A DNA stretch of 64,000 bases from a plasmid. Of this stretch, positions 1 to 10,248 are shown one piece after another. The notes under the pieces were generated by a model. It ran no database searches. It was given only the letters and a program-made list of their open reading frames with translations, and was not told where the DNA came from. Both the position numbers and the translations under genes were made by a program. The stretch lies in the sequence record NZ_CP139428.1; one strand, given 5' to 3'. Within the stretch, counting starts at the first letter, position 1. The number at the start of each line of letters is the position of its first letter.

Positions 1-4
1 AGAC

Positions 5-541
5 GTGACCTACCGGCCCGGCGATCGCCGCCGCGCCACGCGCAAGGAAGACTATATCGACGCGCTCGACATCCTGATTGCCAGCCGGGGGGAGCACTGT
101 TATTCCCCGTTGCCGGGCGACACCCGTGACACGCTGTTCCCGGAAGTGAACCGCCGCCGCCGACAGCGCTTCGAACACCGGCTGACGATGAAACACACCC
201 GTCAGGCGCGCATCGATGCCACACTCCGGCGGCACAAGCGGCGACGTTACCAGGTGCGGCTGGCGCAGGCGGAAGTCGAGCTGGCGTTCATCACGCCGGG
301 CGAGCTTGACCGCTGGGTACGGCGTGCGCAGCAGCAGGGACTTGCCGAGGATGATTTGAGCGGGCTGGTGATGGCGTGGACGGCGCGGTTTCCGTGCCTT
401 GCCGAATTGGATCGTTATCTTTGGGCTGACATGCCGTTCTGGGAGGCGCGTCTTCAGGTCAGTCTGATCAGCGCGGAGTTGTCCGCTGAAGCGCATATCG
501 ATAACGCGGCGCGGCTGCCGAATCGCCTGGTACGCCGCTAA
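5..541 (+). CDS. PsiA-like plasmid SOS-inhibition protein, C-terminal part (ORF probably begins upstream of window)
   Basis: Position ~5.8 kb from oriT matches psiA in F. Motifs LPLPGD, LFPEV, RRHKRR, AQAE and a WxARFP block recall the PsiA family from memory. ORF reaches the window edge. Confidence 0.4.
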   Translation: MTYRPGDRRRATRKEDYIDALDILIASRGEHCYSPLPGDTRDTLFPEVNRRRRQRFEHRLTMKHTRQARIDATLRRHKRRRYQVRLAQAEVELAFITPGELDRWVRRAQQQGLAEDDLSGLVMAWTARFPCLAELDRYLWADMPFWEARLQVSLISAELSAEAHIDNAARLPNRLVRR

Positions 542-599
542 ACCCCGGACAACAGGCTGCAGTGGCTGCGCCACTGCGGCTTGTTGCTCTCTGATCCCT

Positions 600-1100
600 G
601 TGCCAGGCCTGTCTCTGCTTTCAGCAGGGGAGACGGTTCCTGTTGATAGAGTCACGGTGACTGTTGGGCATGAATGTGCCGCTTCTAAACGACTTGCCTG
701 GCGAAACGATGCGGCGCTGGGCGTCCGGGCGCGCTGTCGTGCTGCGCATGGCGCCGGCAAGCCGTCGCCCCCCTGCGGGCGTCCATCGCTGACGCGAAAT
801 ACACGCTTGCAGCCGGCGGTGCCGGCGCCGCTTCTCACTGTTCCTCGCCCTGGCGAGGAACGCTAAGGTCGCCACGGCTTATCGCCGCGTCGGGTGTGTT
901 CCTGCTCATCTCACCGGTGGTTATCTCTCATCGGCCCTTACGCGGCCGCTTTTGTAGCACCGTCACCCGCGTGCCGCAAGGGTGAAATGCACGCCGCAAG
1001 CGGCGCCCTTGCGTTCCCCCGTTCGCCGTCGCTACGTCAGCTTTTTTGCCGCGAAAGGTTCCGACGAGAGATAAATCAACCACCGAAGAGGGATGCCAGC
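600..1100. repeat. Leading-region structured repeat copy A (Frpo/ssi-like single-strand promoter candidate)
   Basis: ~450 bp non-coding, GC-rich, hairpin-rich. Homologous to 3400-3890 (e.g. ctgtcgtgctgcgca...gcgaggaacgctaaggtcgcc shared). Ends at the start codon of an MNTQNVN gene. Confidence 0.5.
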
Positions 1101-1565
1101 ATGAACACACAAAACGTCAACGTCAACACCGCCGCTCAGGAACGCTCTGAAAGATATGGGAAAAGATCCACTGTTACCGGATCGTCTGATGATTGGGATG
1201 TAAAAGCCTGCCTGTTCGTTACGCAGGCGATCGGCCGCTTTTCCGTCAAATTCTCGGCGCCCTGCATCGGGGGCACGGTGAACCTCAATTGCAGCCACAT
1301 CACCAACGCCTGCAATCCGTTTGATGCCGTAATGCGATTTGCGCGCGAAACCCGCGCGCAGGGATGCACGGTGTACGCCGTGGAACAGGTCGAGCCTGTG
1401 CGCCCCGTTTGCCTGAGCACAACCGGGTATCGCTTTATGCAAAAAGGCTTCATCTGGCTGTGTCTTGATACCGGCGTTTTCGTCGAGGTGTCAGACGATG
1501 GCCGGATGCGGCGCGGGGACGATGGCCGTACGTTGCCTTGCTACGGCACGTTAACCCGCATTTAA
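1101..1565 (+). CDS. hypothetical leading-region protein (N-terminus MNTQNVN shared with 3891 gene)
   Basis: ORF directly after repeat copy A. Start context is conserved with the second copy. Confidence 0.5.
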   Translation: MNTQNVNVNTAAQERSERYGKRSTVTGSSDDWDVKACLFVTQAIGRFSVKFSAPCIGGTVNLNCSHITNACNPFDAVMRFARETRAQGCTVYAVEQVEPVRPVCLSTTGYRFMQKGFIWLCLDTGVFVEVSDDGRMRRGDDGRTLPCYGTLTRI

Positions 1566-1601
1566 CCGGTGGCAAGCCACCCTAACCGAGGAGAAAAAAC
1601 G

Positions 1602-1949
1602 ATGTATCAGACCGAAATCAGCACCGAAAACCGCATGGCGTGGGATGCGAGCACCGAGGCCGCGTACTGGCAACGGCGCGAGCAGCAGGCACGCAGCGAC
1701 GTGGAAGAAATCACGCTGGCGGCGTTTATGGATGCCATCGCAGTGATGTACCCGAAAGACTGGGAGGGCGACGCACATAGCGAAACTTTCAAGCTGGCCG
1801 AAATGTACTGCGGGGACGTTGCCTACATTTTTGCAAAAGTCGGCGATCGCTATTTTAAGTTCCGCGATGTGGTGACGTTATCGCACAGCGCCATTCTGGC
1901 GCGGATCAATAAGGAGGTGTTAAGCCGGGAGACGCAAGCCCGTAAATGA
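1602..1949 (+). CDS. hypothetical leading-region protein
   Basis: GAGGAG RBS 7 nt upstream of ATG. Compact ORF in a co-directional array. Confidence 0.5.
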   Translation: MYQTEISTENRMAWDASTEAAYWQRREQQARSDVEEITLAAFMDAIAVMYPKDWEGDAHSETFKLAEMYCGDVAYIFAKVGDRYFKFRDVVTLSHSAILARINKEVLSRETQARK

Positions 1950-2038
1950 AAAAAGCAGCGTTTCCGCTGCTTCCTCATGCCGGTTTACCCCTAGGAAAGT
2001 TAGACCGGCGTTCTATCAAACTACATGGAGTCTCAACC

Positions 2039-2302
2039 ATGAAATCAACAGACCCAAGCATCATGACAGTAACCGACGAGTATGTAAAGCGCCTGCAGGC
2101 TGAGTGCGAGCAGGTGAAACGCCAGCGGCGGATCGCGCGCGGCGATATAGCCGCCGCCGACGTCGATCCGGATCTACGGTCGTTCGGGCGTCATATCGCC
2201 GGATGTGTTCGAAAGGGCAAATCGGTGCGGGTGCCGTCGATGCGGGGCAGTGAGTGGGGGCACGTTCTGCGTGCGCTGGAGTTAACGCGGGCGATGGCCT
2301 GA
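2039..2302 (+). CDS. hypothetical small protein
   Basis: ORF in the same orientation. Start is uncertain (alternative 1946). Confidence 0.3.
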   Translation: MKSTDPSIMTVTDEYVKRLQAECEQVKRQRRIARGDIAAADVDPDLRSFGRHIAGCVRKGKSVRVPSMRGSEWGHVLRALELTRAMA

Positions 2303-2353
2303 TAACGCGAGCCGCCCCGTATCGGGGCGGCTATTCACTGACCCGGAGGTTAA

Positions 2354-3154
2354 TTGATGTCACAACTCTCTTTTGATGCCCTGTTTTCCGTGCCCGTCGA
2401 TGCGGTGCGCCCGGCGGAAAAGAACGTCAGGGCTGATGCGGTCGAACCTTCAAAACCCGCCGACCCTGTACCGGGACGGAAGCGGACAATCACCGGCGAT
2501 GATCCGCGCAAGGCGTTTTTGAGTACGTTTCGTGAAACGGCGCGTTATCACCATCGCTACGAAGTGTTCAGCGATTTTGTGAAACTGACGGCCTGTGCGC
2601 TGGAAAATCTGCTGTTAAAGTCGCCGGACATCGAGGCGGAGTATCTGGCCACCATCCAGCGCTATGAAAAAGCCGACCAGCAGCGCATGGCGCAGTTGTA
2701 TTCATGGCTGATCATCGGGCTGGATCAGGACATGGGGGATTTTCTCGGATCGCTGTTTATGGAGCTGGAGCTGGGCAGCGGCAACATCGGCCAGTTTTTC
2801 ACGCCGTTCCATCTCTCCGAACTGATGGCGGGACTGGTAGCCGGTGATCGGCTGGCGGCGTTGGACAATGAGCCGTATATCACGCTGTCCGAACCGACCT
2901 GCGGCGCGGGCGGGATGGTGATCGCGTTTGCCAAAGTGATGCTGGCGCGCGGATATAACCCGCAAACGCAGCTGCGCGCCGACTGCGTGGACATCGATCC
3001 GGTGGCGGCGCGGATGTGTTACATCCAGTTGTCGCTGCTGGGTATACCGGCGCGCGTGGTGATCGGCAACAGCCTGACACTGACCTATCAGCGCGAGATG
3101 TATACGCCGTTCTGGTATCGCGTGACGTCCACGCGCTGGCCGATGTATCGCTAA
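2354..3154 (+). CDS. HsdM-like N6-adenine methyltransferase domain protein, truncated before the catalytic NPPF/Y motif (leading-region orphan MTase-like)
   Basis: Motif X-like GQFFTPFHLSELMAGLV, motif I EPTCGAGGMV, motif II-like CVDIDPVAARMCYIQLSL. The ORF stops where motif IV would be. Confidence 0.6.
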   Translation: MMSQLSFDALFSVPVDAVRPAEKNVRADAVEPSKPADPVPGRKRTITGDDPRKAFLSTFRETARYHHRYEVFSDFVKLTACALENLLLKSPDIEAEYLATIQRYEKADQQRMAQLYSWLIIGLDQDMGDFLGSLFMELELGSGNIGQFFTPFHLSELMAGLVAGDRLAALDNEPYITLSEPTCGAGGMVIAFAKVMLARGYNPQTQLRADCVDIDPVAARMCYIQLSLLGIPARVVIGNSLTLTYQREMYTPFWYRVTSTRWPMYR

Positions 3155-3399
3155 CACCCGAGGCGGGCAGGGCGATCCTGCCCGATAACGCATGGCAGAA
3201 AACGACACGTTGCCGTTACCGGGCGAATTTACCGATCGGGGCGGAAACACGGGGCGTTTGATGACGACGCCGTGTGCTACCTGGAAACGGTGGCTACGGT
3301 CAGCACCGCGCGGTAAAAGACGAACAGAATGAAAGGCCGGTGCCTGCGGCACCGGCCATTCTTTCCCTTCTCGCACACTGTCAAAAAGACCTGGTGGCG

Positions 3400-3890
3400 G
3401 TTTTTCTACCTCTCCCTCGCCGGCTGCCGGTATTTCTGCGGTGAACCGGGTTTTCGCATGATGCCTGGGCGTGCCCTTCGGGCCCGGCTGTCGTGCTGCG
3501 CAGGGAGCCGGCACGCCGTCTCCCCCCTGGCGGGCTTCCATCCGTCACGCGATGGGCACGCTTGCAGCCGGCGATGCCGGCGCCGCTTTTCACTGTCCCT
3601 CGCCCAGGCGAGGAACGCTAAGGTCGCCCCGGCTTGTCGCCGTGTCGGCCGTGTTCCTCCTCGCTGCGTTTCCGGTGCGCCATCGGACGGCCGTTCCCCG
3701 GCGGAGGGCTGTTCGTAGCACCGTCGCGTCGCCCCGCAAGGGGTGAAATGCACTTCACCGAAAACTTTTTCCAGGTAAAAACTTTTCGTCTCGCCCCTTG
3801 CGTGTCTCCTTACGCCGTTGCTCCGTCGCCCTTTGCCGCCAGGGAACTCACCGAACGATGGAATAACCACCAGAGAGGAGCAAGAGCAGG
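3400..3890. repeat. Leading-region structured repeat copy B (Frpo/ssi-like candidate)
   Basis: Homologous to 600-1100. Ends at the ATG of the second MNTQNVN gene. Confidence 0.5.
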
Positions 3891-4262
3891 ATGAACACGC
3901 AAAACGTCAACACCGCCACCAAAGAATCTTCCAAACGATGGGCGGGAAAATACCCCGATGCGGAAAACATCATGATCCGTCAACTGGCATTGATGGAGGA
4001 ATTACACGGCGTGTATTTGTCCCCTGACGAACTGGCGCAATCGCTGTATGAAATTTTTAACACGATGACGGATCGGGTGGTGTTTAACGGCGTCGATAAC
4101 TCGCCGTCCGATAAACCGAAAATTGCGTATGCCGTCGCGCAACATTGGATTAAGGCGCAGCGTCTGGCCGGTACGTATTTTGGCGAGACCGGCATCGTTG
4201 CCTGGGAACATGCGCGTTATCGGCTGCACCTTCAGCTGGCTATCAATCACTCATACCGTTAA
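3891..4262 (+). CDS. hypothetical leading-region protein (MNTQNVN start)
   Basis: ORF with an AGAGGAG RBS directly after repeat copy B. Confidence 0.5.
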   Translation: MNTQNVNTATKESSKRWAGKYPDAENIMIRQLALMEELHGVYLSPDELAQSLYEIFNTMTDRVVFNGVDNSPSDKPKIAYAVAQHWIKAQRLAGTYFGETGIVAWEHARYRLHLQLAINHSYR

Positions 4263-4318
4263 TTCATCGCCGGTCTAAAAAAAGTGTCCGGCATTACTCA
4301 AAGAGAAAGGAGAATATC

Positions 4319-5146
4319 ATGCGTCTGACTTCCCGTTTTGGCCGTTATAACGCTATCCGTAAAGACCGTCCATTAACCAACGACGAATTAATGAACGTGG
4401 TGCCGAGTGTGTTTTCAGAAGATAAACACGATTCGCGCAGTGACCGCTATACGTATATTCCCACCATTACGCTGCTGGATAAATTACGCGAGGAAGGTTT
4501 TCAGCCGTTTTATGCCTGCCAGACGCGCGTCCGGGATGAAAGCAAACGCGGCCATACCAAACACATGCTGCGGCTGCGTCGGGAAAATATGATTGTCTCC
4601 GGCAATAAGGAAGTCCCCGAAATCGTATTATTGAACAGCCACGACGGGAGCAGCAGTTACCAAATGATCCCGGGGATGTTCCGCTATGTCTGTGCTAACG
4701 GAATGGTATTTGGTCAATCGTTCGGTGATGTTCGTGTGCCGCATAAAGGGGATGTGGTCGGGCAGGTGATTGAGGGCGCCTATGAAGTGCTCGGCATATT
4801 TGACCGCGTCGATAATGACCTCGATACCATGAAATGCATTTCACTGACCGAGCGCGACCAGGAATTATTTGCGCGGGCGGCGTTAAGTTATCGCTACGAG
4901 TATGAAGATAAATCCCCGATCACGCCATCGCAAGTTTTGCGTCCGCGTCGGCGTGAAGATTACGGCAATGATTTATGGACGACATTCCAGCGCGTTCAGG
5001 AAAACATGATTAAAGGCGGATTACCCGGTAAAAGCGTGACCGGTAAAAATACCCGTACTCGGGCGGTCAACGGTATCGATGGCGATATAAAACTGAACCG
5101 TGCGTTATGGCTGATTGCGGATGAATTCAAAAACCGAATGAAGTAA
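4319..5146 (+). CDS. YafZ/YfjQ-family (DUF932) protein typical of plasmid leading regions and prophage-like islands
   Basis: 275 aa. Blocks RYTYIPTITLLDKLREEGFQPF, LLNSHDGSSSYQMIPG, IEGAYEV, DIKLNRALW match the YafZ/YfjQ family. Confidence 0.75.
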   Translation: MRLTSRFGRYNAIRKDRPLTNDELMNVVPSVFSEDKHDSRSDRYTYIPTITLLDKLREEGFQPFYACQTRVRDESKRGHTKHMLRLRRENMIVSGNKEVPEIVLLNSHDGSSSYQMIPGMFRYVCANGMVFGQSFGDVRVPHKGDVVGQVIEGAYEVLGIFDRVDNDLDTMKCISLTERDQELFARAALSYRYEYEDKSPITPSQVLRPRRREDYGNDLWTTFQRVQENMIKGGLPGKSVTGKNTRTRAVNGIDGDIKLNRALWLIADEFKNRMK

Positions 5147-5247
5147 CAGGTTGCCCCGGTAATGACGCCCATCAATACCGGGGCCGAACACTGCTACAGA
5201 ACGTACAGTTAATACAACGCGGACAGTATGAAATAACGAGGTGAAAG

Positions 5248-5544
5248 ATGCAAACGGAAAATTTACGGGTATGCAGTACGGCACATTTTACATCGGAAGA
5301 TAACGAGCTGTTAGCGACAATGGCAGGGCAGGCGGGTCTTAGTTCCTGGGTGGTTAACATCCAGTACGGTTATATTCTGGTGCTGACGGATTATCGCTGG
5401 CGGCTGCGGGTATTAAAGTCGCAAGGAGCGTCAAAACCGCTGAGGCGGTTTCTAATTCACCAGATAAAATATCACCGTACAGGCTACATCCATTTTGATT
5501 GTGATGCATCCATTCTTGCCGGCCACGAGGTTTTTGAGTGGTAG
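5248..5544 (+). CDS. hypothetical protein
   Basis: 98-aa ORF with an RBS. Confidence 0.35.
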   Translation: MQTENLRVCSTAHFTSEDNELLATMAGQAGLSSWVVNIQYGYILVLTDYRWRLRVLKSQGASKPLRRFLIHQIKYHRTGYIHFDCDASILAGHEVFEW

Positions 5545-5831
5545 CGCGCTGATAAGAGTCGTCCCCATCGAGGGGGCGTCTCTTATTCTCCCCGCCCGCC
5601 CAGCGGGAAATAAATTTCCCGCTCCCGCTGCCCCAAAGGGGCGCCCTGGTTAGCACCCAAAAAACGGTAACGTTTTTTGGTGGTGTTCGTTAACTTTGCG
5701 ATCCGCTTACCCACATCTACACAATCGACGTTATTTCACCTTGCCCCGGTGAAATAACCGCTCCCGTTCGTTTCCCATTAAGGGGAATGGGAAACCTCAC
5801 TGGCTTTGTCTTATGTGCATATGTGGATAAA

Positions 5832-6302
5832 CTACGGGTTCTGGACGAGGAGGGGTTGCTGCTTGCTGGCTTTTATCGCCCGGTAGGTCTTTTCGATTTT
5901 GCGTGCATACTTATAACGTCGTTGCGCCTGCTTAGGCGAATCTTTAAATCCTGCATTATAAGCCCCCACTGCCTGCCAGGTCGCTCCCCACTTCTTAAAG
6001 GCAATCGCGAGATAATAAGCACCGGTGTAGATGTTCATGCACGGATCTTGCTTCAGGTGACGTTCTGAAACCCCAATCGATGAGAGCGAGTTAAAGTGCT
6101 GGGAGTCAATTTGCATTAACCCGACGCCGTACCCTGTTGTAGGATTTGGGCCGATAGCCACGGGATTAAACCGTGACTCGTTCCATGAAATAGCACGCAG
6201 CAGATCCGGGTCGATGTGATAATCACGACCCGCCATGTCAAAACAATCAGCCATAGCGGCCGTTGAACTGAATAGCATTAACGCTGCGATGAGGTTCTTC
6301 AT
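5832..6302 (-). CDS. lytic transglycosylase (SLT domain; F geneX/orf169-like) adjacent to oriT
   Basis: Signal peptide. SLT motifs [11 protein letters not shown] and GLMQI. Sits where F has its oriT-adjacent orf169. Confidence 0.8.
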
Positions 6303-6721
6303 GGTATCCTTAAAATCCCTAGCCCTGGTGAAAATCTAGCCTTTTCGGGATCTCGAGTCAACAAATTCGCGCTCTTTGGGGTAACAGCATCACACCCCAC
6401 GCAAAATTGTATTTTTCAGAATTATTATTTTAAAACAGTTGGTTACGCGCTTTAAGTTGTTGTTGTATTTTTACATGGCAAGAGATTAGAGTTGTAAAGG
6501 ACTCTAACTAGAGTCGTTATTCAAGTTTATACACAACTCTACATAGAGTTATCACTAAATTTCAAATAGATAAACAGACTCGACCCTAGAGGCGAGTTGT
6601 ATTTTTTTGCTTTTATAGTTATCATTAGACTCGCAATTAGAGTCGGATTTGATTCGTGCATGCCAACTCAAAATACATACAGATTATCTGTCAGCTAATA
6701 ATGTCATGGAGTAAAAATTAT
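6303..6721. promoter_or_regulatory. oriT: oriT region: F-type nic motif on minus strand (rc TTTGCGTGGGGTGT|GATG, ~6388-6405) plus TAGAGT/ACTCTA repeat clusters (candidate TraM/TraY/IHF sites and traM promoters)
   Basis: 6388-6405 catcacaccccacgcaaa is the reverse complement of the F/R100 nic core TTTGCGTGGGGTGTG. Repeats at 6486-6520, 6536-6556, 6582-6604, 6628-6655. Confidence 0.7.
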
Positions 6722-7120
6722 ATGGCAAGAATTCAAGCATATGTCAGCAAGGAGGCGGTTGAAAAGATTCATGCAATTGTTGAACAGCGCCGTCAAGAAG
6801 GGGCTGCTGAAACTGAAGTAAGTACATCTAGTGTTATTTCTATGCTTCTTGAACTCGGTCTCAGAGTCTATGAGGCACAGATGGAAAGAAAAGATGACCC
6901 TTTTAATCAGACGGAGTTTAACAAAACTCTTTTGGAAAACGTATTGAAAACTCAACTTGCAATGGCAAAGGTTCTTGGTGCAAGTACTCTAGCTCCACAT
7001 GTTGCAGATAAACCAAAACTTAATAACTATCAGCAGATCATTTCAGAAATAAACGAATCTGTTAATGATAAGTTAGAGAGATTTTTTATTGGTGTTGATT
7101 CAGATAGTACTAACGAATGA
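6722..7120 (+). CDS. traM: TraM relaxosome accessory protein
   Basis: MARIQAYVSKEAVEKIHAIVEQRRQEGA...MLLELGLRVYEAQMERK aligns closely with F TraM. Confidence 0.9.
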   Translation: MARIQAYVSKEAVEKIHAIVEQRRQEGAAETEVSTSSVISMLLELGLRVYEAQMERKDDPFNQTEFNKTLLENVLKTQLAMAKVLGASTLAPHVADKPKLNNYQQIISEINESVNDKLERFFIGVDSDSTNE

Positions 7121-7186
7121 ACTATCATCAATAACTTAATTACCTCATGCCTCCTTTGGGAGTGAGGTAATTATGCTTGCTGATTT

Positions 7187-7549
7187 CTATTTGTTTAGAC
7201 AGTCAATTATTTCAATTGCTAGTCGTTTGGCATCTTCAACTTTTTTAGCTAATTTTTTCTCTTCTATTACTGAACTGTAGAATTTATTTTTGGAGGGATT
7301 TGTTCTGTTTCTATGCATTTCAAGAAGATCTGTCGCTAAATCATCATCTATCGTATAGAAGTAATACTCTGGGTAATCCAATAAGTTGGCTATTTTTACT
7401 ACTAAGCTGAAAGGTGGTTCTGTTCTGCCGACTTCGTAACTTGACAGTCTTGAGCTTGAATTGGCCCCTTGTATACCTACAAGTTCAGCTAACTGCTCCT
7501 GTGTATAACCACTTGATATTCTGGCATCTTTTAGTCTTTTTGGTATCAT
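7187..7549 (-). CDS. XRE-family HTH transcriptional regulator (Cro/CI-type), divergent from 7721 gene
   Basis: N-terminal HTH RLKDARISSGYTQEQLAELVGI. AT-rich. Confidence 0.7.
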   Translation of the reverse strand: MIPKRLKDARISSGYTQEQLAELVGIQGANSSSRLSSYEVGRTEPPFSLVVKIANLLDYPEYYFYTIDDDLATDLLEMHRNRTNPSKNKFYSSVIEEKKLAKKVEDAKRLAIEIIDCLNK

Positions 7550-7720
7550 GGTCCCCTCCTTTATTATGATTTTACATAGTGTTAGGAGGTGAAAAATCCA
7601 CATAATCAAGAACTGTTGATAATGTGTAGTTCATGCTGTGCTATGTTTATTTCATCATCTGATGTCTTTCATGTATCATCTTTTGACTAACCATCACTAT
7701 TATTTGATCATGAGTATGCC

Positions 7721-8317
7721 ATGAATAATACCGAGATAATAAAAAAGAATATAAATTACCTTCTTTCTTCGAGAAAGGAAACACAAGTTTCTTTGAGTGA
7801 TGGTGCCGGTGTTAATCGAACTACTATATATAAGATCCTTGAAGGTAGGGTAGAGCGCGTTCAAGAAAATACTCTTCGAAAAGTAGCCGGATTCTTTGGT
7901 GTTTCATTTAAAGAAATTCAATCTGTTGATTTACAAGAAAAGGAGTTATCTAATAAGTTAGTAACCATTGATGGTAACATGAACCCGTTGGCGGTTCCGA
8001 TTATTAAAGATACAACTATACTCTCAGCAGTAAATGCAAAAATTGGACGGTTAGTTATGTCGTCACCTATAACTTATTTCTTCGGTGAAGGTCCTAATGT
8101 AGTTGGAATACTTCTAACAAAAGAGATAAAAGGATACTATAATAAAGGTGATGTGATCATCGTTCGCCGTGAGGCTATCATTCATGAGGCAAATGTTCTT
8201 GTGGTTACTTCAAGCAAAAGTTTAAAGGTGATTGATGGTAGTTCGGCTCATTTAGTTGCTGAGGATGTTGTTGGTACAATAATCGAGGAAAGGTATGGAA
8301 GCGAATATAAAATATAA
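7721..8317 (+). CDS. CI/LexA-like repressor: N-terminal XRE HTH plus C-terminal S24-peptidase-like domain (catalytic Ser-Lys not evident)
   Basis: HTH block VSLSDGAGVNRTTIYKI. C-terminal KGDVIIVRRE...LVVTSSKSLKV resembles the LexA/UmuD beta-domain, but no GxSM motif is seen. Confidence 0.6.
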   Translation: MNNTEIIKKNINYLLSSRKETQVSLSDGAGVNRTTIYKILEGRVERVQENTLRKVAGFFGVSFKEIQSVDLQEKELSNKLVTIDGNMNPLAVPIIKDTTILSAVNAKIGRLVMSSPITYFFGEGPNVVGILLTKEIKGYYNKGDVIIVRREAIIHEANVLVVTSSKSLKVIDGSSAHLVAEDVVGTIIEERYGSEYKI

Positions 8318-9152
8318 GCTAATTGGATTTGATATCCTCAATGGAAAAGCTAACGTTATGGTGTTGAATACTGGGCGGGTTATGTCAATGCCATACGAAA
8401 GACTACTATCTTCAGAGGTGATTGATGATTTTAACGCTAGAGAAGTGTCGGCGGTTTGTCGAAAAATATATAGCTCTGGTGAAAGTGTTAAAACTGAATA
8501 TGAGTTTAAAGATAGAAATGAAAAGCAGTGGTTAACTTATGTTGCTTTTTGTTTGGTTATTAGTGTTTGTTATATATTTAGTAATATAGCTGCAGTCAAA
8601 CCAGTTCACATACAATACTTTGATCTTATCATTACGCCTGGTACTTTTGTTTACCCGTTTACATTCTTAGTAGTAGATCTTCTGAATGAATTTTATGGAT
8701 TTAGGCTGGCAAGAAAAGCCATCTATATGTGTGTTGTTGCTAATGCGGCAATATTAGGGTTGCTTTATGTTTCTCTGAAGTTACCTGTTATACCTGAATG
8801 GATATTCAATGGTCCATATAATAGCCTTATTAATCAAATACAATCAACATTTCTTGCATCAACTATAGCATTTCTTACCTCCGAGCTGGCTAATTCATAT
8901 GTGCTTTGTAAAATCAAAGAACTGACTAATTCTCGCTACTTATATATAAGGATTCTTTCCAGTATATTCGTGGCCTCTGTTATAGATAGTGTTGTCTTTT
9001 GTTTCATAGCTTTCAGTGGTTTGATGACAAACGAACAAATAATAGGAATTATCGCCGTTCAAGTAATAATTAAGTTAGCGTATGCACTTGTTAATGTTTT
9101 TCCTGCGTATGGAGCAAGGTATCTATTTAATAAATACCTCACTCAAGAATAA
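8295..9152 (+). CDS. yhhQ: YhhQ/DUF165 (Vut-family) queuosine-precursor (preQ0/preQ1) transporter with ~80-aa N-terminal soluble extension
   Basis: PGTFVYPFTFLVVDLLNEFYG and multi-TM profile match the YhhQ family. Overlaps the upstream repressor gene by 23 nt. Confidence 0.7.
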   Translation: MEANIKYKLIGFDILNGKANVMVLNTGRVMSMPYERLLSSEVIDDFNAREVSAVCRKIYSSGESVKTEYEFKDRNEKQWLTYVAFCLVISVCYIFSNIAAVKPVHIQYFDLIITPGTFVYPFTFLVVDLLNEFYGFRLARKAIYMCVVANAAILGLLYVSLKLPVIPEWIFNGPYNSLINQIQSTFLASTIAFLTSELANSYVLCKIKELTNSRYLYIRILSSIFVASVIDSVVFCFIAFSGLMTNEQIIGIIAVQVIIKLAYALVNVFPAYGARYLFNKYLTQE

Positions 9153-9163
9153 TATTTAATTAG

Positions 9164-9865
9164 TCATAAGGCCTGTTTTTTTTGCAGGCTTTTTTTTATT
9201 TCTTCTTTGTTTTGTACGTATTCATTAAACCCTCTCAATCGTAGAAAACATGCGTCGCATTTCCCACACCCAAAACTTTTAACTCCATTGTAACAAGTTA
9301 AAGTTTCATCTCTGATGAGTTCCAAACATCCCATATTGTCTGCTAATGCCCATGTTTCAGCTTTGTTTAATGACATTAGTGGCGTTACAAACTTGATATC
9401 TCTTCCTATTCCTAAACTTACTGCGTGGTTTAACGCTTTCACAAAAACATCACGGCAGTCCGGGTATCCTGAAAAATCAGTCTCACAAACACCTGTTATT
9501 ACGTCTTTCGCATTTACTTGAAATGCATAGATGGCGGCAAGGGTAAGGAATACGATGTTTCTGCCAGGAACAAACGTTGATGGTATTCCATCCGAATCAG
9601 CATTTTTGTGCTCGGGCACTTCAATCTCATTTCTAGTCAAACTACTTATTGCTAACTCATTGATTACATTAACATCTAGAATTTTATGTGAGCTTACGTT
9701 TAGCTTCTTTGCAAGTTGCTCCGCTATTTTAATTTCTTCACTGTGGCGCTGGCCGTAGTCGAAGGTTAAACAGTGCACGGAGTCATACTCAGCGAGAGCC
9801 TTCACTAAGCATGTAGTTGAATCTTGACCTCCACTGAATACAACTACTGCTGTTTTTCCTGACAT
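9164..9865 (-). CDS. queC: 7-cyano-7-deazaguanine synthase QueC
   Basis: [59 protein letters not shown]-terminal Zn Cys cluster [16 protein letters not shown]. ~65% identity to E. coli QueC from memory. Confidence 0.9.
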
Positions 9866-10248
9866 ATAAACTCCTTATTATTCAATTCGATGAAATTAAA
9901 AAGCATCATATGGTGCGTTTTGTGTTGCTTTGTTGTTGGATGTATTCTACAGTTTCATTGTTTTAGTTCAATCAGTCAAACCATTGGTAGCTGTAGAAGG
10001 TCATCTCGTAGAACAAATACATCACACTCATACCGCGAGATTAAGCTTTAATCTAATGATTTTATTGTTTTTTTTTGTGATTTGACTTCAGGTGGTTACA
10101 TCAAAAACAGCTTATTTTTTATCAAAATATCTTTAATTTTCATAATGTAAGGGGGTGCTTCCAACTGTTCAAATAATCTCATTTCATACTAAGCCAAGGA
10201 TGTTTCTCTATTGCATCCAAAGATTTACCTCATTCAAGGATAATTTAA

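Follow-up and report, generated by a model that had tools for sequence, protein, structure and literature searches.

Leading region and the duplicated module

The window analyzed here is a 64-kb stretch of an F-like Serratia plasmid, and the two repeats under study, copies A and B, are located in its leading region. Along this region we found psiA, copy A, three small ORFs, an N6 methylase gene, a terminator and copy B, followed by a small ORF, DUF932, DUF5983, an SLT gene, oriT and traM. F has its genes in the same order and orientation, with Frpo1 ahead of ygeA-ygeB (DUF932). Between the SLT gene and traM the minus strand carries an F-like nic motif, TTTGCGTGGGGTGT/GATGC. This position of the nic-like site makes the minus strand the transferred one, entering 5' to 3' toward position 1, in agreement with the earlier note, which had taken it as the T-strand. 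Copy B is 2.5 kb and copy A 5.3 kb away from this site, and the genes downstream of both copies are on the plus strand, i.e., they are templated by the transferred strand. The features of the region are as follows.

557..595, plus strand: terminator-like hairpin GCAGTGGC-TGC-GCCACTGC and then a T-containing tail, after psiA (read from the sequence)
720..893, minus strand: distal module of copy A (86% identity to copy B), with small GC-rich hairpins d3 (812-826), d4 (840-861) and d5 (~866-892)
894..1110, minus strand: long imperfect hairpin of copy A, 217 nt, candidate single-strand promoter (MFE -66.4 kcal/mol, z = -8.1)
1101..1160, plus strand: start codon and leader codons MNTQNVNVNTAAQERSERYG of ORF 1101-1565
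3335..3357, plus strand: intrinsic terminator at the end of the methylase operon, before copy B (10-bp GC stem, then ATTCTTTCCC)
3467..3647, minus strand: distal module of copy B, with d3 (3567-3581) and d4 (3595-3616)
3648..3900, minus strand: long imperfect hairpin of copy B, 253 nt (MFE -72.3 kcal/mol, z about -6.7)
3891..3946, plus strand: start codon and leader codons MNTQNVNTATKESSKRWA of ORF 3891-4262
6384..6405, minus strand: oriT nic-like site CAATTTTGCGTGGGGTGT/GATGCTGT, cut between the two (F-like motif and F-matching gene order)

The hairpin at 557..595 would end the operon upstream of copy A, a tentative assignment since the terminator scan did not flag it. The promoter scan detected no canonical duplex sigma-70 promoter in either repeat or between the upstream terminators and the repeats. 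No Rfam covariance model matched at E <= 1 in window positions 1-8000, nor over the equivalent elements of six related loci.

The existence of two homologous repeats, proposed in the earlier note, was confirmed by direct-repeat search and pairwise alignment (78% identity overall, 86% in the distal part). The best conserved segments are 768-907 with 3523-3662 (86%) and 724-775 with 3478-3529 (85%), while weaker blocks extend up to and past both ATGs. Within the 64-kb window there is no third copy. The proposed limits (~600-1100 and ~3400-3890) had to be shifted. The stretches 600-720 and 3400-3467 lie outside the homology and, because the homology reaches about 20 codons into the ORFs, the 3' ends run further; we have therefore reset the copies to ~720-1165 (A) and ~3467-3955 (B). 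The remaining description held: all three identical blocks quoted there were found, each in the distal part (where the conserved blocks of copy A include ctgtcgtgctgcgca and cctgcgggcgtccatc), both regions are rich in GC (0.62-0.71) and contain many inverted repeats, and the MNTQNVN start is present in both as ATGAACAC.CAAAACGTCAAC at 1101 and 3891. Each copy follows one plan, a distal block of small GC hairpins, a long imperfect hairpin with the start codon within its base, and about 20 conserved leader codons.

ORFs of 84-154 amino acids traverse the repeats on both strands, and RefSeq relatives occasionally have a “hypothetical protein” annotated at this place, so that the repeats might be taken for coding sequence or decayed gene remnants. 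However, the crossing ORFs are short and overlapping and contain no Pfam family at E <= 0.1, and the copies are separated by indels of 1, 2, 5, 14, 23, and 28 nt, none of them a multiple of three, so that no frame is preserved between them. In addition, substitutions track base-pairing and not codons. We have consequently rejected the coding potential of these ORFs, give practically no credence to a coding origin and consider the two copies, as had been claimed, a duplicated non-coding module.

Fold of the long hairpin and its conservation

Folding of the minus strand, the first check suggested by the earlier note, produced a long stable hairpin in each copy, with the z values given above. The whole repeat regions, folded as minus-strand DNA, were also more stable than their shuffles (z = -4.4 for A and -5.7 for B). 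The apex is short and GC in copy A, lacking the A+T-rich tip of F and copy B, and A+T-rich and F-like in copy B. With a plain MAFFT alignment of 53 hairpins, RNAalifold found no more than the basal stem plus a pair of short helices, as arm indels put the pairing partners out of register. For this reason we used two other tests, an alignment-free comparison of native and chimeric arms and a test of strand asymmetry, both on 25 representatives sharing less than 85% identity. Duplexes of native arms had a mean energy of -59.7 kcal/mol vs. -40.2 for the chimeric ones, indicating that the arms co-evolve. The transferred strand folded better than the sense strand in all 25 (mean difference -11.9 kcal/mol, p = 6e-8) and contained 3.5 times more G-T pairs (133 vs. 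38). The sense strand folds too (means of -52.6 kcal/mol as DNA and -101.6 as RNA), and the RNA can adopt the same hairpin, less stably. The fold is thus under selection on the minus strand and not on the mRNA strand.

At the base of the hairpin, ATGAACACAC pairs with the far end and compensatory changes are present in this stem, which bears out the suggestion that the repeat includes the translation start. An alternative helix, in which the box in the coding region would pair with the base of the 3' arm, had a weak effect (-8.4 vs. -7.2 kcal/mol) and is not claimed here.

The distal module is found in more than 4000 plasmid records and is homologous to the DNA upstream of F Frpo1 and Frpo2 (E = 3e-14 and 3e-11). 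Its hairpin d3 shows compensatory changes in seven of nine pairs, and for 21 of 23 relatives the minus strand of the module has a slight advantage in folding stability over the sense strand.

Candidate promoter elements, leader and interpretation

On the 3' (non-template) arm of each hairpin the elements of a putative promoter can be placed as follows, together with the box that is repeated on both sides of the start codon.

983..992 (copy A) and 3744..3753 (copy B), minus strand: bulge GTGCATTTCA, 10 unpaired nt on the 3' arm, immediately next to the -35-like box on its 5' side
974..979 (copy A) and 3734..3739 (copy B), minus strand: candidate -35-like hexamer TTGCGG, non-template arm
951..956 (copy A), minus strand: candidate -10-like hexamer TACAAA preceded by TGc (extended -10), 17-nt spacer
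3712..3717 (copy B), minus strand: candidate -10-like hexamer TACGAA preceded by TGc, 16-nt spacer
1044..1050 (copy A) and 3830..3838 (copy B), plus strand: predicted transcription start on the template arm, from the hairpin geometry (5' UTR of ~55 nt in copy A)
1061-1076 (UTR) and 1145-1160 (ORF), plus strand: repeated box of copy A
3847-3864 (UTR) and 3929-3946 (ORF), plus strand: repeated box of copy B

The bulge motif is also found in F and ColIb (GT.CAT.TC), and the predicted -35-like box aligns with their TGGAC(A/T). TTG is present at this position in 37 of the 53 relatives, and the spacer is 16–18 nt long in all 53. In both copies an internal loop coincides with the -10-like hexamer; in copy A, TAC is paired while AAA faces GAC within the loop. 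F has a mismatch bubble at the corresponding position. Of the 53 relatives, 42 have the putative A(-11) mispaired, the base itself being fixed by the pattern with which they were collected. Likewise, the invariance of CGGTGCTAC and CATTTCACCC in this set is partly circular, since the exact collecting pattern contains them. Among relatives independent of the pattern, TGnT is retained in most, although absent from F Frpo1 and Frpo2, and the -10 hexamer is variable. The candidate boxes match the consensus weakly, with just TTG at -35 and no T at -7 in TACAAA or TACGAA. Other placements were considered and rejected. If the -10 were put in the conserved bulge and the -35 in the apex, copy A and other short-apex members would have no room for the latter, and F and ColIb have no conserved -35 at that distance. 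A promoter reading from base to loop on the 5' arm was discarded because no conserved hexamers are found there.

The leader comprises about 20 codons, MNTQNVN(VK)TAAxESSERWG, and closes with the box that repeats the one in the 5' UTR. It is conserved as nucleotides rather than as protein, the box being kept in two reading frames and the segment being non-coding in F. In related elements the leader continues in frame into no fewer than 12 cargo proteins that appear unrelated to one another, among them ArdC and anti-restriction proteins of the ArdB/KlcA type, and at one locus it stands as a separate, coupled ORF of 24 codons. The leader DNA is present in 1455 plasmid records, with Klebsiella, Enterobacter, Citrobacter, and Serratia as the main sources. 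While Frpo-type elements are an expected feature of such plasmids, the shared leader attached to them is unexpected. We tentatively put forward, as one possibility, that the repeated unit is a portable single-strand expression cassette made of hairpin promoter, standard RBS and ~20-codon leader. If so, leader and box would do something in their own right: they might standardize translation initiation or coupling whatever the cargo, help to form a persistent primer RNA-DNA hybrid, or provide a junction at which cargo is exchanged.

The Frpo homology detailed below, the co-evolution of the arms and the bias toward the transferred strand in 25/25 representatives support the earlier interpretation. 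Both repeats are probably single-strand DNA promoters of the Frpo/ssi family, class 1 (ssp1), with promoter activity as a prediction. After nicking at oriT, the minus strand would enter the recipient with its 5' end first, and copy B (~2.5 kb in) and then copy A (~5.3 kb in) would each fold into a hairpin of more than 200 nt whose stem imitates duplex promoter DNA. The 3' arm would offer a TTG-type -35 and, 16–17 nt further on, a TGn-TAC extended -10 with its downstream half within the mismatch bubble. Host sigma-70 RNA polymerase could then initiate some 55 nt ahead of the ATG, on the 5' arm. Before the complementary strand exists, it would transcribe the operon from ORF1101 to the methylase at copy A and, at copy B, the operon of ORF3891, DUF932 and DUF5983. 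Synthesis of the complementary strand would remove the hairpin and turn the promoter off. RNA reading through from upstream would contain both arms, with RBS and ATG buried, so that presumably just the hairpin-initiated transcripts would be translated efficiently.

The hairpins might instead serve mainly in DNA processing, as ssi sites priming the complementary strand or as roadblocks that delay duplex conversion. Frpo was originally isolated for its priming activity, and DNA synthesis is primed by its transcripts (PMC7690428; bioRxiv 10.64898/2026.01.09.698686), F ssp2 is a replication roadblock (bioRxiv 10.64898/2026.01.09.698686), and the small GC hairpins of the distal module, followed by CTGCAAGC, have no obvious role in transcription. 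However, priming and expression are not exclusive, the same elements of F drive early protein production, and each hairpin adjoins an RBS and ATG in the correct orientation, with the start codon within its base; a predominantly processing role is therefore unlikely in our opinion. A role in recombination, with the folded strand or the ~400 bp of homology swapping cargo genes and promoter function being secondary, would agree with the joining of one leader and box to so many different proteins, with a junction immediately after a box that recurs ~78 nt upstream, with the tandem partial duplication of this unit in F and with a mini version that adjoins two tyrosine recombinases. Yet the elements lack a consistently linked recombinase, the shuffling can be accounted for by ordinary homologous recombination between repeats, and the conserved spacer length, the bubble and the strand bias suit a promoter, making this explanation very unlikely. 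Finally, the repeats could be structures of the sense-strand 5' UTR, transcribed from a duplex promoter and controlling translation or mRNA stability. The sense strand does fold and the fold spans RBS and ATG, but the minus strand was always the more stable, and in the mRNA its excess of G-T pairs would turn into C-A mismatches. From the upstream terminators to the repeats there is no sigma-70 promoter of the duplex type, and the elements, without any Rfam match, are homologous to Frpo. We regard this as highly improbable.

Single-strand promoters, the preferred reading, set which plasmid genes act first, within minutes of conjugative entry. Most of these genes serve anti-defence or SOS control, and through them the promoters bear on the establishment of resistance plasmids in new hosts. 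The branch described here is common outside E. coli and until now was just a low-certainty prediction; the comparative evidence (Frpo homology, co-evolving arms, fold of the transferred strand) lifts it to a well-supported family, with concrete positions for candidate boxes and starts of transcription. Since one leader is shared by unrelated cargo, it could aid the discovery of new leading-region genes and also be used as a design for early expression from conjugatively delivered DNA.

Relation to known single-strand promoters

We built a family profile from 53 relatives (335 model positions) and searched plasmid F with nhmmer. The only matches were Frpo1 (E = 3e-22) and Frpo2 (E = 9e-18), over model positions 19-314 of 335, a homology of the whole hairpin that confirms the kinship proposed before. 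By BLAST, copy B and F Frpo1 are ~60% identical over 537 nt (E = 5e-19). Frpo1 (ssiD, ssp1a) and Frpo2 (ssp1b) have the same leading-region position and orientation as the copies, copy B occupying the place of Frpo1 directly before the small ORF and DUF932, and the homology spans distal module, hairpin and leader region. Common to all are the bulge GTGCATTTCA followed by CCCC and a mismatch bubble ~17–18 nt after the -35-like box; the A+T-rich apex is shared by F Frpo and copy B, but not by copy A. On the other hand, F and the copies share only ~60% identity and their outer stems cannot be aligned by eye; where F has TGGACT at the -35 position, the copies have TTGCGG, and the bubble starts with TGTCTT in F and TAC in the copies. 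Moreover, the hairpin ends at the start codon in the copies, whereas in F it runs on through a leader-like segment that is non-coding (AGG for ATG) and is followed by a second RBS-ATG unit.

The IncI1 Frpo homologues ssi1-3 of ColIb-P9 are likewise dispersed repeats upstream of leading-region operons. In the comparison with them suggested in the earlier note, the likeness seen by eye is limited to the core (apex, bulge and CCCC-TGGAC), and BLAST gave no match to the window copies at E <= 1e-3. On the transferred strand they, too, have small GC hairpins on the 3' side of the long one. The classes of single-strand promoters and their mapped transcription starts have been described (PMC12672017), and classes 2 (ssp2) and 3 (ssp3) of pESBL and F share the concept, large hairpins before early-expressed leading-region operons. 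F ssp2 (L004:7342-7756, upstream of ardB/klcA) had just a 19-nt match (L004:7344-7362, E = 4.4), and the F region upstream of the M.EcoGIX-type methylase operon (L004:2927-5167), F DNA that stood in for the published ssp3, had no significant similarity. At the minus-strand origin of the filamentous phages M13/f1, sigma-70 RNA polymerase reads -35/-10-like sequences presented by a hairpin in SSB-coated ssDNA. What this phage element yields is just a short primer, and neither an RBS nor an ORF is coupled to it.

Sequence matches also link the copies to published Frpo* candidates (sequences in PMC11541004, Supplementary Table 2). Copy B is 74% identical over 350 nt (BLAST, E = 2e-61) to Salmonella Frpo*5, and copy A 66% over 326 nt to Frpo*2 of an insect metagenome. 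These candidates (AAEPNF010000010.1 and OFEI01000013.1, respectively) come from another host and plasmid, and show the same two apex types. The copies belong with them to a divergent branch of the class-1 single-strand promoters. Samuel et al. (2024) proposed Frpo* from resemblance in structure and hexamers only and, because of deviant -35 and -10 elements, graded these relatives as low-certainty. To this branch the present work adds the analyses of covariation, strand bias and leader.

Position of the repeats in the leading region

The window opens with the leading region (1-7120) of an F-like (MOBF/MPF_F) Serratia plasmid. Its genes, named from Pfam and from the annotation in relatives, are arranged as follows around the two repeats (copy A, ca. 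720-1165, and copy B, ca. 3467-3955):

5-541, psiA
Copy A, between psiA and the ORF at 1101-1565
1101-1565, ORF after copy A, followed by two small ORFs
2357-3154, N6 methylase
3335-3357, terminator, between the N6 methylase and copy B
Copy B, between the terminator and the ORF at 3891-4262
3891-4262, ORF after copy B
4319-5146, DUF932
5248-5544, DUF5983
5832-6302, minus strand, SLT transglycosylase
6384-6405, minus strand, F-like oriT nic motif CAATTTTGCGTGGGGTGT/GATGCTGT (compare the F nic region, TTTGCGTGGGGTGT/GGTGCTTT)
6656-7120, traM, with oriT between the SLT gene and traM

Gene order and orientation are the same as in plasmid F, where ygeA-ygeB (DUF932) follow Frpo1, one of the two class 1 (ssp1) hairpin promoters of F. 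The nic-like motif is read on the minus strand, indicating that this is the transferred strand, as the earlier note had it; it would enter 5' to 3' towards position 1, templating all the plus strand genes.

Copies A and B are 78% identical overall, 86% in the distal part (768-907 vs. 3523-3662) and ca. 68% in the gene-proximal part, and their homology extends ca. 20 codons inside the downstream ORFs. They had been described as homologous, structured and non-coding, and all of this holds: the ORFs crossing them belong to no Pfam family and the indels between them break the reading frame. No third copy was found in the 64-kb window. The best match for copy B was in S. marcescens NZ_MT039168 (100%) and for copy A in S. 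ureilytica pJBIWA004_1 (98%). Two Serratia relatives (L001:4087-4365 and L084:6995-7276) have a third, more F-like copy before a ParB-like/psiB/psiA operon, i.e., at the Frpo2 position, which in this plasmid would fall just left of position 1 of the window. The ORFs 1101-1565 and 3891-4262 have no Pfam family, and the names given to their counterparts in L001 (NZ_CP074169), “protein TraE,” “dehydrogenase” and “ribulokinase,” look spurious. After traM there is a low-GC block (6300-10200, 0.31-0.40 vs. ca. 0.6 in the leading region), where two ORFs (7187-7609, minus; 7721-8317, plus) look by eye like XRE-/LexA-type regulators and sit where F has traJ.

A long hairpin and the strand on which it folds

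Each copy has three parts, a distal module, one long imperfect hairpin and a leader of ca. 20 codons:

720-893 (A) and 3467-3647 (B), distal module with three small GC hairpins; the one called d3 is at 812-826 (A) and 3567-3581 (B)
894-1110 (A), long hairpin of 217 nt, -66.4 kcal/mol, z = -8.1
3648-3900 (B), long hairpin of 253 nt, -72.3 kcal/mol, z = -6.65
1061-1076 (A) and 3847-3864 (B), box of ca. 15 nt in the 5' UTR
1101-1160 (A) and 3891-3946 (B), leader codons, conserved at the nucleotide level
1145-1160 (A) and 3929-3946 (B), the same box repeated inside the ORF

Folding of the minus strand, the check proposed in the earlier note, gave a stable hairpin in both copies. Its base is formed by GTGTGTTCAT paired with ATGAACACAC, with compensatory changes in this basal stem, which places the start codon and codons 2-4 inside it, in agreement with the suggestion that the repeat includes the translation start. 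The apical stem of copy B is A+T-rich (GAAAAGTTTTT/AAAAAGTTTTC), as in F, while in copy A, by a 28-nt difference, a short GC stem capped by a tetraloop takes its place; both types of apex recur in the family. If the A+T-rich apex were an upstream activating element, copy A could, speculatively, be the weaker promoter.

Relatives were gathered, one genome per species, by the pattern GTAGCACCG N8-24 GGGTGAAATG, which yielded 86 loci, ca. 65 of them true relatives, in Pantoea, Enterobacter, Erwinia, Rahnella, Kosakonia, Serratia and others. The distal module occurs in over 4000 plasmid records, and F has it upstream of both Frpo1 and Frpo2. Among 23 relatives, seven of the nine pairs of d3 show compensatory changes, and the transferred strand of the module folds slightly better in 21; after d3 on this strand comes a conserved CTGCAAGC. 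Between copies A and B the module is more similar (86%) than the long hairpins, and in many Enterobacter and Pantoea relatives a “version 2” module (containing GGGTCTGATGGCGAAGGTCAA) replaces it.

A structure just before a gene might be an ordinary 5' UTR structure instead of a single-strand DNA element. Two tests, both independent of the alignment and of the collecting pattern, argue against this. Over 25 representatives less than 85% identical, DNA duplexes of the native 5' and 3' arms had a mean of -59.7 kcal/mol vs. -40.2 with the arms of other members, i.e., the arms have diverged in complementary fashion. In addition, the transferred strand folded better than the sense (plus) strand in all 25 (mean difference -11.9 kcal/mol, p = 6e-8), with 133 G-T pairs vs. 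38 on the sense strand. Since G-T pairs become C-A mismatches on the opposite strand, it is on the transferred strand, and not in the mRNA, that the fold has been maintained. A single-strand DNA element would be expected to show both strand asymmetry and arm co-evolution.

The shared leader and its repeated box

After the hairpin, 60 of the 78 instances collected read ATG AAC/CAC ACA CAR AAC GTC AA..., by a filter that fixed the first 14 nt only. Of 56 complete ORFs, 55 have the leader, MNTQNVN(VK)TAAxESSERWG, joined in frame to a cargo; inspected past ca. residue 20, the cargo sequences sort into at least 12 groups that look unrelated. Pfam identified ArdC (domain from residue 30), an ArdB/KlcA-type anti-restriction protein and DUF905; several cargo proteins have no Pfam family, and one group resembles F YgeA by sequence. 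The window ORFs 1101-1565 and 3891-4262 are likewise alike over their first ca. 20 residues only. At one locus (L088) the leader forms a 24-codon ORF of its own, overlapping the next start (TGATG). The terminal box, which contains CCGAAAGATGG, persists in either of two frames, encoding ESS-ERW or, where 1 nt has been inserted, ESS-RKM, and the whole leader segment is present in F but non-coding. It is thus the nucleotides that are conserved. In all, 1455 plasmid records contain the leader DNA, of which no mention was found in the literature searched.

The box in the 5' UTR recurs ca. 78 nt downstream in the ORF; the two boxes vary in step across the family, reflecting either function or concerted evolution. 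F (L004:15009-15064) appears to carry the unit box-RBS-ATG-leader partly duplicated in tandem. An alternative helix of the coding box with the 3' arm was weakly supported.

Candidate promoter elements and relation to Frpo

No canonical promoter was detected in either repeat by a duplex scan. Followed from the loop down to the base, the 3' arm of every member's transferred-strand hairpin has an unpaired bulge GTGCATTTCA and then CCC(C), followed by a hexamer that begins with TTG in 37 of 53 (in both window copies, TTGCGG). Next come a spacer of 16-18 nt, which is paired, and TGc; the hexamer after that begins with T (TACAAA for A, TACGAA for B), has its downstream part within an internal loop of 6-8 nt, and precedes (C)AGCCC. 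We read this as a putative -35 box separated by a spacer from an extended -10 box, the bubble being already open; the 3' arm would then be the non-template strand and the 5' arm the template. Predicted transcription starts would be at ca. 1044-1050 (A) and 3830-3838 (B), ca. 55 nt before each ATG. The constancy of CGGTGCTAC/CATTTCACCC in the set is partly circular, as these bases are part of the collecting pattern. In members found without it TGnT is mostly kept (it is absent in F Frpo1 and Frpo2) and the -10-like hexamer varies (TACGAC, TAAAAG, TGTTAT, TTGTCT, TGTCTT). The putative A(-11), fixed by the pattern so that its constancy is not independent evidence, has G or A opposite it instead of T in 42 of the 53.

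Nothing else in the family is as well conserved as the bulge GTGCATTTCA (983-992 and 3744-3753, minus strand, 10 nt), which is found from F and ColIb through to the mini versions of other proteobacteria; as it is unpaired, its conservation must be sequence-specific. These compact core hairpins outside Enterobacterales (L010, L021, L029 and L063, from Gallionella, Chromatiales, Ectothiorhodospiraceae and Thiodiazotropha MAGs) combine a short GC apex with the bulge, CCC, TTGACG, ca. 15 nt and TGC-TACTCT; that of L029 adjoins two tyrosine recombinases and a RelE/HTH pair.

Three classes of single-strand promoters with mapped transcription starts have been described in pESBL (PMC12672017), and Frpo transcripts can also prime complementary-strand synthesis (PMC7690428; bioRxiv 10.64898/2026.01.09.698686). 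Samuel et al. (2024, Supplementary Table 2; PMC11541004) tabulated established Frpo/ssi sequences along with new candidates. Of these, copy B matched the Salmonella “Frpo*5” (74% identity over 350 nt, E = 2e-61) and copy A the insect-metagenome “Frpo*2” (66% over 326 nt, E = 8e-23), both rated by that study as low-certainty candidates owing to their deviant -35/-10 elements. Neither F ssp2 nor the DNA preceding the F methylase operon showed similarity to the copies. For the comparison with F Frpo called for in the earlier note, a profile of 53 distinct hairpins matched plasmid F at Frpo1 (E = 3e-22) and Frpo2 (E = 9e-18) only, over model positions 19-314 of 335, so that the copies are true, although divergent, class 1 homologues. 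F and ColIb differ in having TGGAC(A/T) where the window copies have TTGCGG. As far as sequence analysis goes, Frpo homology, hairpin and strand asymmetry support the Frpo-type interpretation, with copies A and B as members of a divergent branch, widespread and previously proposed only tentatively, of such single-strand promoters.
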